A stretch of 64,000 bases of DNA from Escherichia coli (GTDB taxonomy: Bacteria > Pseudomonadota > Gammaproteobacteria > Enterobacterales > Enterobacteriaceae), in the NCBI RefSeq assembly GCF_045037415.1, contig NZ_CP173438.1; one strand, written 5' to 3'. Positions 12,001 to 15,000 of this stretch are shown one piece after another. Numbering within the stretch: position 1 is the stretch's first letter; every line of letters begins with the position of its first letter. The position numbers were made by a program.

Positions 12001-15000
12001 CTCTGCGGTCAGCTCTATGAACGTATCCATACCCGCGACATGCGCATGATGGGCGGTCTGTGGAGCAAGATGAAGTGGCTGCCAGCACTGTCGCTGTTCT
12101 TTGCGGTGGCAACGCTTGGGATGCCTGGCACCGGTAACTTCGTCGGCGAATTTATGATTCTGTTCGGTAGCTTCCAGGTTGTCCCGGTAATTACCGTTAT
12201 CTCTACCTTTGGGCTGGTCTTTGCATCTGTTTATTCGCTGGCGATGCTGCATCGCGCTTATTTCGGTAAAGCGAAAAGCCAGATTGCCAGCCAGGAACTG
12301 CCAGGGATGTCGCTGCGTGAGCTGTTTATGATCCTGTTGCTGGTGGTGCTGCTGGTACTGCTGGGCTTCTATCCGCAGCCGATTCTGGATACCTCGCACT
12401 CCGCGATTGGCAATATCCAGCAGTGGTTTGTTAATTCCGTTACTACTACAAGGCCGTAAATCGCCATGACAATAACTCCACAAAACCTGATCGCACTGCT
12501 ACCGTTGCTGATCGTCGGCTTGACGGTGGTGGTTGTGATGCTCTCCATTGCGTGGCGACGCAATCATTTTCTCAACGCTACGCTCTCGGTTATTGGGCTT
12601 AACGCGGCGCTGGTTTCGCTCTGGTTTGTCGGCCAGGCGGGCGCTATGGACGTTACGCCACTGATGCGCGTTGATGGTTTCGCCATGCTTTACACCGGGC
12701 TGGTATTGTTGGCGAGCCTCGCCACCTGTACTTTCGCCTACCCGTGGCTTGAAGGCTATAACGACAACAAGGATGAGTTCTACCTGTTGGTGTTAATTGC
12801 CGCGCTGGGCGGGATCCTGCTGGCGAATGCCAACCATCTGGCGTCTCTGTTCCTCGGTATCGAACTGATCTCTTTGCCGCTGTTTGGCCTGGTCGGTTAC
12901 GCTTTCCGCCAGAAACGTTCGCTGGAAGCCAGTATCAAATACACCATCCTTTCTGCCGCAGCGTCTTCTTTCCTGCTGTTCGGTATGGCGCTGGTGTATG
13001 CGCAGTCTGGCGACCTGTCGTTTGTCGCACTGGGTAAAAACCTCGGCGACGGTATGCTCAACGAGCCGCTGTTGCTGGCAGGTTTCGGCCTGATGATTGT
13101 TGGCCTCGGCTTCAAACTCTCTCTGGTGCCGTTCCACCTGTGGACGCCAGACGTATACCAGGGCGCGCCTGCGCCGGTTTCCACTTTCCTGGCGACGGCG
13201 AGCAAAATCGCTATCTTCGGCGTGGTGATGCGTTTGTTCCTTTACGCACCGGTGGGTGACAGTGAAGCGATTCGCGTAGTGCTGGCGATTATCGCCTTTG
13301 CCTCCATCATCTTCGGTAACCTGATGGCGCTGAGCCAGACCAATATCAAACGTCTGCTCGGTTACTCATCTATCTCTCACCTCGGCTATCTGCTGGTGGC
13401 GCTGATTGCGCTGCAAACCGGCGAGATGTCGATGGAAGCGGTAGGGGTTTACCTGGCAGGTTATCTGTTCAGCAGCCTCGGCGCGTTCGGCGTGGTCAGC
13501 CTGATGTCCAGCCCGTATCGTGGCCCGGATGCTGATTCCCTGTTCTCTTACCGCGGTCTGTTCTGGCATCGTCCGATCCTCGCGGCAGTGATGACGGTGA
13601 TGATGCTTTCACTGGCTGGTATCCCAATGACGCTGGGCTTTATCGGTAAGTTCTACGTGCTGGCGGTCGGTGTCCAGGCACACTTGTGGTGGCTGGTGGG
13701 TGCCGTAGTTGTCGGTTCGGCAATCGGCCTCTACTACTACCTGCGTGTGGCGGTGAGCTTATACCTTCACGCTCCGGAACAACCGGGTCGCGATGCACCA
13801 TCAAACTGGCAGTACAGCGCAGGCGGTATCGTGGTGCTGATCTCTGCACTGTTGGTACTGGTGCTGGGTGTATGGCCACAACCGCTGATTAGCATTGTGC
13901 GGTTAGCAATGCCGCTGATGTAAGCAGTCAGTTTGTAAGTCAGAAAGCCGCCGACATGTTCGGCGGTTTTTTTGGGTGCCCTGACACCATCACCCAACAA
14001 TAACCGTCAGCGCATGATTCCCTTGTCGCAGCATACGTCGATACGCGCTAATCAGCTTTTCCATATCAAGCATGATCGAAGCAAAGAGTTGCCCCTCTAA
14101 CTCTTCTGAAAAGGTTACTCCCGGATAAATCTCCATTTCATTGAGTCGCTTAATGGAAAACTGTTTACGCAGCTCACTTCGATCCAGTGATTCCAGTCGG
14201 TCGATTGTCGCGGCTAACTCCTGATTCCAGGTCAATCCCAGGAAGCCATCTATGCCATCTTCTAGGCTGTGTTCACCAAGCACTGCGCGACTTAGCGGGT
14301 CATTCTTCGCGGGGTCAAATGCAGATGTACCCGTCAGGCCAAAGTGTAAAAAATCCCAGCGTTTATCAATATCCAGTCGGCGTAATCCTGAAAGCGTGTC
14401 ATGTATATTATCCATCAAAGGTTTTTTAGTAGACTCAAGCAGTTGGTTAATCTTTTCTGAGTCAATTTCTGCAAAATAGCCAATCATTCCCATTTATTTT
14501 TCCTCCGTTGAATTTCATGTTTCGCATCTTAAAACAGACGAAAGAAAATAAAATGCGCATGTTGCTTTTTCTGGATCCGCCTCGAGAAATTTTTATTATT
14601 TACTGTTGTATAACAAGGTTGTAACTCCATCCACTACCTGAGCCATTTTCTGATAATTTAATCTGTCTGCGATATCACCGGGAAAGTGGTATTGTTTATT
14701 ACGATAAAAAGCGGTGTCAGTAATCATTACGGCGGGAATATCGTATTGCCAATAATTAAGGTGATCAGAGAAATCAATACCGGGAATAAAACCTGGGGCA
14801 TTCATAGAATAAACAGATAAATCCCGGGATGACAACAATGCCGCTTTTACCTGACGAACGGCGTTGATATCCTGCATTCTGCCGACCACGGCAATAAAGT
14901 CTCCCCGATCGGGATAAAGCCAGGACATGGCCGGGGATGGGTAATCCTGGCTACCAGGCGTAGAGTCGTAATAACCAATCATCTCCAGCGCTATCATTAA

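Follow-up and report, generated by a model that had tools for sequence, protein, structure and literature searches.

Accessory content of the Escherichia coli K-12 chromosome includes the K-islands, small core-flanked blocks known from comparisons of K-12 with O157:H7. The 2.6-kb block that K-12 carries between nuoN and yfbM resembles them, as it consists of genes of unknown function, is low in GC, is flanked by core genes, and is present in K-12 while O157:H7, ST131, and most strains lack it. However, its content in K-12 appears to be largely an ancestral remnant at the genus level, and only yfbP looks lineage-specific. The site also resembles core-flanked polymorphisms exchanged by recombination, which show several alleles, conserved flanks, no mobility genes, and a local divergence peak, the last being seen here in one empty/occupied pair. 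A presence/absence polymorphism of elaD is located within the same nuoN-rbn interval at a distance of 3.5 kb, and elaD is likewise found in K-12 and missing from ST131 and other B2 lineages (PMC12575377, PMC1847702). It is nevertheless a separate indel with its own boundaries. elaD and the yfbN block co-vary in K-12 and ST131 but not everywhere, as form C of the present site (described below) lacks elaD and strain PapRG-06-5 has it. Heterogeneous polyimmunity loci, as portrayed in most of the text of Zhang et al. 2012 (PMC3482391), differ more: the SUKH match here is marginal, there is no co-directional array (yfbN converges on the SUKH-like gene and diverges from yfbO), and no toxin gene lies near the yfbN module. 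DUF1877 and DMP19 go unmentioned in that same portion of the text. The site is ordinary strain-variable gene content, visible in every annotated genome. The new points are small, namely a probable polarity of deletion, a SMI1/KNR4-like pseudogene in the K-12 yfbN-yfbM spacer, and the age of the yfbN alleles.

The window, which is the whole 64-kb stretch of E. coli DNA analysed, is 100% identical over an 18-kb stretch to many O25b:H4-ST131 genomes, and its source is therefore an ST131-type E. coli of phylogroup B2. Its features around the site are collected in Table 1. The annotation of nuoN is present under every E. coli match, and the gene is 98% identical to K-12 at the nucleotide level. Beyond the site, yfbM, yfbL, and yfbK form a low-GC, fast-diverging right flank, in which identity to K-12 by BLAST is 94% as against 98% in nuo. 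Within this flank, yfbM has a dN/dS of about 0.04 across Escherichia, and yfbK is followed by a gap of 120 bp to rbn. We consider it probable that an old presence/absence polymorphism with several alleles exists at this site, that the window has its empty allele, most likely the product of a deletion, and that alleles have been exchanged between lineages by recombination in the flanks.

Table 1. Features at and around the nuoN-yfbM junction, in window coordinates
Feature	Coordinates	Strand	Description
nuoN	12466..13923	+	485-aa ORF; last gene of the nuo (NADH dehydrogenase I) operon
nuo terminator-like hairpin with T7	13944..13973	+	core stem-loop 13948-13966; T7 13967-13973
16-nt spacer GGGTGCCCTGACACCA	13974..13989	no strand	putative 'scar' of the empty allele; 13975-13988 without K-12 counterpart (BLAST)
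yfbM	13990..14493	-	167-aa ORF; DUF1877 family (Pfam E=4.1e-35); convergent with nuoN
yfbL	14596..15573	-	ORF; M28 metallopeptidase by annotation of homologous genes; upstream of yfbM on the same strand
yfbK	15705..17447	+	ORF; vWA-domain protein by annotation

The K-12 reference was an MG1655-derived genome (locus L001), in which the order is nuoN, yfbP (-), yfbO (-), yfbN (+), yfbM (-) and the stop codons of nuoN and yfbM lie 2,610 bp apart. In pairwise BLAST, 2,558 bp of K-12 (L001 6576-9133) replace 14 nt of the window (13975-13988), with breakpoints at 13974/13975 and 13988/13989. No tblastn match to YfbN, YfbO, YfbP, or the SMI1/KNR4-like protein was found in the whole 64-kb window. The preliminary description had placed 66 bp with the nuo terminator between the two stop codons, and the coordinates (13924..13989, exactly 66 bp) and ORFs agree with it. 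The block of yfbP, yfbO, and yfbN, which it had expected from K-12, does lie between nuoN and yfbM in the MG1655-derived genome and is absent from the window, and the alignment shows no K-12 junction of nuoN with yfbM. GC content is 33-46% in the K-12 block as against 52-62% in nuo. Low GC is a weak criterion for an island, and the core-like right flank (yfbM, yfbL) is low in GC too.

The empty state is by far the commonest in a census of 5,426 complete E. coli genomes, a collection in which K-12 derivatives are over-represented. The 3' end of nuoN, the spacer, and yfbM are contiguous in 4,309 of the 5,426 (79%), and sequence of the K-12 block occurs in 1,015 (about 19%). Among these 1,015, the block is at least 99% identical to K-12 in 985 (about 18% of genomes) and its sequence is 60-90% identical in 27. 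Many of the carriers are laboratory K-12 derivatives, so the K-12 share is inflated. Diverged forms, made up of yfbO-yfbN with or without a SMI1/KNR4-like gene, are present in about 30 genomes. They include form C (locus L003; 13 genomes), which has yfbO-yfbN about 85% identical to K-12 and no yfbP, and form D (about 10 genomes, e.g., PapRG-06-5, L014), in which a SMI1/KNR4-like gene accompanies yfbO-yfbN. About 99 genomes have neither a contiguous junction nor block sequence and were left unclassified. The absence of the block had been presented as a departure from the expected gene order; the window in fact has the majority state of the species and K-12 the minority one.

Five arrangements are found at the site, namely empty, yfbP-yfbO-yfbN, yfbO-yfbN, yfbO-yfbN-SUKH (intact or frameshifted), and yfbN-SUKH. 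yfbP in E. coli is known from K-12-type copies only. Secondary insertion sequence (IS) events are superimposed on these arrangements, with ISEc22 in yfbM, IS903B and IS1A inside the block, and deletions bounded by IS1 or IS5 that run from the block into elaD or rbn. Apart from such events, each sampled occupied allele is a version of one old yfbN-based module, and the versions differ in addition and decay. The site had been called a strain-variable insertion/deletion hotspot. The census bears out the strain variability, while the notion of a hotspot for diverse cargo does not agree with the single module found.

The polymorphism would extend from the nuo terminator to the yfbM stop codon. The hairpin CCGCCGA-CATGT-TCGGCGG (13948-13966) starts 24 nt after the nuoN stop and consists of a 7-bp GC-rich stem and a 5-nt loop followed by T7. 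Its fold is -27.2 kcal/mol (z = -4.2), and none of 200 shuffles was as stable. A GC-rich stem-loop with a U-tract downstream of a stop codon is the make-up of an intrinsic terminator. In the empty allele it is the sole structured element between the convergent nuoN and yfbM, and it probably serves both transcripts, as far as can be read from the layout. Bidirectional use is weakened by the minus strand, where the hairpin is followed by CUUUCU only and its fold does not stand out from shuffled sequences (z -1.7). The terminator was not called by a promoter/terminator pattern scan of 13500-14700, which called nothing there, probably because A-T pairing carries the stem on into the T-run. With permissive E-values, Rfam yielded sub-threshold chance matches only.

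The hairpin and the position of the T-run are kept in all alleles, including those of E. albertii, E. whittamii, and E. fergusonii. The T-tract is shortened in K-12 only, to T5 as against T7-T8 (T7-T9 at the empty sites of other E. coli). The junction had been described as sitting on the hairpin itself; instead, the variable segment starts directly 3' of the T-tract and leaves the hairpin intact. The empty site is near-invariant in O157:H7, O111:H-, and other lineages, reading hairpin, T7-T9, (G/T)GGTGCCCTGAC(A/C)CCA, and the yfbM stop. The spacer recurs with one or two substitutions in O157:H7, O111:H-, other E. coli, E. whittamii, and the divergent strain SCPM-O-B-8794, and its 15-nt sequence GGTGCCCTGACACCA is absent from the K-12 locus with up to 3 mismatches allowed. 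On the left, empty alleles continue with GGGTGCC straight after the T-tract. Form C, the cryptic-lineage locus (L025), E. fergusonii, and Superficieibacter continue with ATGGT, and K-12 continues with CTGAAAAAG after its cut T-tract. On the right, homology restarts exactly at the yfbM stop codon in all alleles, and the right-hand deletion junction of form B (K-12) is also that of form C. Purifying selection on the terminator and the yfbM coding sequence would leave the boundaries at the edges of these two elements under any mechanism.

The occupied alleles preserve a series of stages in the decay of a 191-aa SMI1/KNR4-like gene. This gene is intact in L010/L025 and in E. fergusonii, and it carries one frameshift in PapRG-06-5. 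In form C, residues 103-191 (the C-terminal half) remain and the rest is gone. In K-12, the C-terminal half is split over three reading frames at L001 8860-9116; the 272-bp 'intergenic' region between yfbN and yfbM of K-12 is therefore a pseudogene remnant of the SMI1/KNR4-like gene. On the other hand, yfbN is a real gene under purifying selection, with a dN/dS of 0.21-0.34 (Nei-Gojobori, as for all dN/dS and dS values here). Between K-12 and E. fergusonii, dS is 0.82 for yfbN, 0.31 for yfbM, and 0.16 for nuoN. Among E. coli alleles, dS of yfbN is 0.4-0.7 (0.4-0.8 for yfbN alleles overall). The yfbN alleles are thus very old and older than their flanks. They are mosaic, too, as yfbN of PapRG-06-5 is 94.5% identical to that of E. 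fergusonii and its yfbO is 99.5% identical to the cryptic-lineage allele.

Other species were used to orient the change. E. whittamii and SCPM-O-B-8794 are empty with a homologous spacer, and E. albertii has an empty site as well. The order in E. fergusonii is nuoN, yfbN (71% amino acid identity to K-12), the 191-aa SMI1/KNR4-like gene, and yfbM. A cryptic lineage (Escherichia sp. MOD1-EC7003) has nuoN, yfbO, yfbN, the intact 191-aa gene, and yfbM, and YfbN is 87% identical in further named cryptic-clade strains. Contigs that are Superficieibacter-like and Klebsiella (aerogenes-like) carry yfbN directly downstream of nuoN at 46% identity; their genus assignment was made by exact NuoN and clustered MenF matches. 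These outgroup contexts were recovered via exact-protein look-ups, and a scan for YfbM in species-representative genomes gave 4 Escherichia loci, two of them truncated. Owing to this outgroup synteny, a deletion in the lineage of the window is favoured over an insertion in K-12. Judging from the gene orders, the decay series, and the ages of the yfbN alleles together, the ancestor of the genus Escherichia most likely had an occupied site, and the empty allele of the window is most likely a deletion that left a scar of 14-16 nt.

The ancestral Escherichia order would most likely have been the nuoN terminator, yfbN (+), the SMI1/KNR4-like gene (-), and yfbM (-). yfbO would then have been added in E. 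coli lineages and yfbP in the K-12 lineage, both between the terminator and yfbN, and the SMI1/KNR4-like gene would have decayed. One deletion allele may have taken out the whole module and left 14-16 nt. This empty allele would now be the commonest in E. coli and would also be present in E. whittamii, E. albertii having a similar empty site. The spacer of the E. albertii site, ATTGCACGCAGCCA (14 nt), is unlike that of E. coli, and a single origin of the empty allele is not established for that reason. As to how the deletion occurred, a candidate microhomology is formed by ATGGTG(T)T after the T-tract and ATTGTGCT, which in E. fergusonii and the cryptic lineage precedes the yfbM stop by 18 nt. 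The motif ATGGTG directly after the T-run is common to the occupied alleles and the empty allele of E. whittamii, which reads ATGGTGCT. A deletion between ATGGTG and ATTGTGCT is weakly suggested by 8 nt and would leave the last 9-10 nt of the spacer unexplained.

Simple parsimony at the species level is ambiguous, as the site is empty in E. albertii and E. whittamii and in 79% of E. coli. The leading alternative takes this empty site as ancestral and regards yfbP-yfbO-yfbN as a horizontally acquired islet of the K-12 lineage (a 'K-island') inserted after the nuo terminator. It draws on the emptiness of these two species and of most E. coli. Atypical composition and patchy distribution, as expected of an island, are both found here in the low GC of the block and its presence in about 19% of genomes, and the 985 copies of at least 99% identity fit an islet too. 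As to yfbP, this gene has a weak relative on conjugative plasmids of Providencia, Proteus, and Morganella, which together with its restriction to K-12-type copies in E. coli implies that at least yfbP is a real, recent addition. For the block as a whole, however, the same position is occupied by yfbN in E. fergusonii, cryptic Escherichia, Superficieibacter, and a Klebsiella. Moreover, K-12 contains a decayed remnant of a gene that E. fergusonii and the cryptic lineage have in intact form, the allelic dS of yfbN exceeds that of the flanks, and neither mobility genes nor target-site repeats accompany the block. We therefore regard an islet origin as unlikely, though far from negligible. A mixed history, in which an ancient deletion was followed by recovery of an occupied allele in the K-12 lineage through recombination, is a possible variant. 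The yfbN of Klebsiella and Superficieibacter comes from very few contigs and could represent independent acquisitions at the same site. The near-identity of the K-12-type copies fits a recent spread, and this, like the low GC of the block, speaks against deletion.

Regarding mobility, annotation of the K-12, form C, and form D loci lists no recombinase (integrase or transposase) gene, and neither an integrase nor a tRNA gene is annotated at any locus examined. A look for short direct repeats at the junction of block-carrying strains had been suggested, and searching the ends of the K-12 block for terminal direct or inverted repeats gave nothing beyond short chance matches. The 14 bp at the site are replaced and not duplicated, unlike the repeats that a mobile element would leave. 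A phage search with the block gave no match, and in a plasmid search the only substantial match was one 365-kb E. coli record. Under the deletion reading, no mobile-element machinery would be required, and alleles would move between lineages by homologous recombination in the nuoN and yfbM/yfbL flanks. The apparent breakpoints would be the edges of two selected elements, the terminator T-tract and the yfbM stop codon.

The comparison of the window with form C (L003) is consistent with such exchange. The flanks of L003 are 99.2-99.3% identical to the window, and 35 of the 88 mismatches fall in 13500-15000, about 1.5 kb of the 12 kb compared. Divergence is 2.6-2.9% beside the indel as against at most 0.4% in most of the rest, in this one pair. 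This local peak points to replacement of the allele by homologous recombination, the crossovers lying in nuoN and yfbL. The divergence of 1-kb flanks between K-12 and O111, O157, and WP4 was uninformative. With several structural alleles at one orthologous site and a flank divergence peak in one pair, the locus has the features of a polymorphism, and homologous recombination in the flanks appears to be the route of exchange between its alleles.

A true integration hotspot, in which the nuo hairpin would be the recurrent target of a site-specific or transposase mechanism that brings in different cargo, is highly improbable and was rejected. Three different sequences do abut the T-tract (the empty spacer, ATGGT, and the yfbP segment), and IS66, IS1, IS5, and IS903B occur in or near the locus in some strains. 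However, a single homologous module accounts for all sampled non-IS content, and the loci examined showed neither an integrase nor att-like repeats nor a tRNA gene. The IS elements are inserted at scattered places in yfbM and within the block, away from the hairpin. Furthermore, purifying selection on the T-tract and the yfbM stop would produce the same coincidence of boundaries. An artefact of assembly or of the window was rejected as practically out of the question, since many ST131 genomes, each completed independently, match the 18-kb stretch at 100% identity and the junction recurs in 4,309 complete genomes.

The proteins of the block give limited clues to function. YfbP is a TPR protein, with a TPR match only. 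YfbO had no match in a Pfam scan, and precomputed annotations assign it to the YfbO family PF27222. YfbN has tandem UBA-like domains and a DMP19/DUF4375-like domain, the latter likeness being by fold only, with no Pfam match. The 191-aa protein matches SMI1_KNR4 marginally (Pfam E=1.3e-3) and SUKH_5 at E=0.08, and a fragment is named 'SMI1/KNR4 family protein' by NCBI. At E<=0.01, no PADLOC family matched YfbP, YfbO, YfbN, or YfbM, and a comparison of the block proteins with NCBIfam was of no help. Knockouts of yfbO and yfbL reportedly make K-12 resistant to phage N4 (preprint, bioRxiv 10.1101/2025.09.29.679331), and in a retron toxin/antitoxin screen yfbO was chosen as a blocker for its genetic linkage with yfbN. 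The block is dispensable, as the reduced-genome strain DGF-298 has lost it in a deletion that also covers elaB to yfbM (PMC10652928). Literature searches on the b-numbers of the block, and on links of DUF1877 or DMP19/DUF4375 to immunity, gave nothing relevant. A speculative and rather improbable reading is that the module lost from the window, with yfbN, the SUKH-like gene, and yfbO beside the DUF1877 gene yfbM, is the decaying remnant of a conflict locus, for inter-bacterial toxin immunity or phage interactions, maintained as a trans-species polymorphism. If so, its loss in ST131 and most E. coli would change a measurable phenotype, for which susceptibility to phage N4 is one candidate.

Taken alone, the site is of little importance, being one among many small differences in gene content between K-12 and other E. 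coli. As the K-12 state is a minority here, the 'expected' gene order is better not taken from K-12 by default. Natural yfbN/yfbO-null backgrounds, ST131 included, can be used to study the reported effect of yfbO and yfbL on phage N4. Additionally, the nuoN-rbn interval offers a compact case of the stepwise loss of an old accessory module, in which the pseudogene series is datable and the alleles predate the species.

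A second indel lies within the same interval as the yfbN block (yfbP, yfbO and yfbN), and it concerns elaD, the gene of a deubiquitinase. In K-12-type strains, as well as in PapRG-06-5 (which carries yfbO and yfbN together with an SMI1/KNR4-like gene), elaD is present between yfbK and rbn. The window does not carry it, and the gap between these two genes measures 120 bp (17448-17567). This absence agrees with the published one, as elaD has been reported missing in ST131 and other B2 lineages (PMC12575377). The co-variation of elaD and the yfbN block is not constant.

Genes bordering the elaD site in the window
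Gene	Position in the window
yfbK	15705..17447
rbn	17568..18485

The K-12 version of the interval holds the trace of one further gene. The 272-bp 'intergenic' region between yfbN and yfbM is the remnant of an SMI1/KNR4-like gene, whose frameshifted C-terminal half (residues 103-191) occupies positions 8860-9116 of L001, a genome derived from K-12 MG1655. The remnant carries no annotation in the K-12 record examined; intact copies of the gene are found in E. fergusonii and in a cryptic Escherichia lineage. Additionally, about 150 nt of yfbP, the K-12-only addition (L001 7203-7352, positions 628-777 of the K-12 block), share 70% identity with hypothetical genes on conjugative plasmids in Providencia, Proteus, and Morganella, a match that hints at the origin of yfbP.

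Sequences matching YfbN occur elsewhere. A Chryseobacterium homologue (L030, 1-12735; 32-39% identity) belongs to an extended series of small proteins encoded in one direction, most of them unannotated, a context of the type known for immunity-type gene arrays. Moreover, the YfbN profile was matched in 29 separate stretches of P0176, a protein of 4,090 aa, and all of them map to profile positions ~70-124 (the RYTLTELILRK region). This region of YfbN may form a repeat module in other proteins.

Compared with L003, a close relative carrying yfbO and yfbN without yfbP, the nuo genes of the window show clustered mismatches at 8000-8500 (6 + 6 per 250-bp bin) and 11750-12000 (8 in one such bin), with 0-2 elsewhere. 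These short patches look like small recombination imports. Between nuoN and yfbM, the terminator pattern scan returned 0 sites at window 13944-13973, despite the textbook hairpin and T7 found there; having overlooked these, its negatives should not be over-read.

Changes also extend to the other genes of the interval. In one O157:H7 genome yfbL is frameshifted, and in EC21Z-144 it is partial. In E. fergusonii (L016) yfbL is missing, yfbK and rbn are separated by a CheW/response-regulator gene, and yfbK itself is only 66% identical to that of the window. In a Klebsiella-like contig (L028), yfbN is the sole gene from nuoN to rbn. Across these two and a Superficieibacter-like contig (L019), the entire nuoN-rbn interval is unstable between genera.
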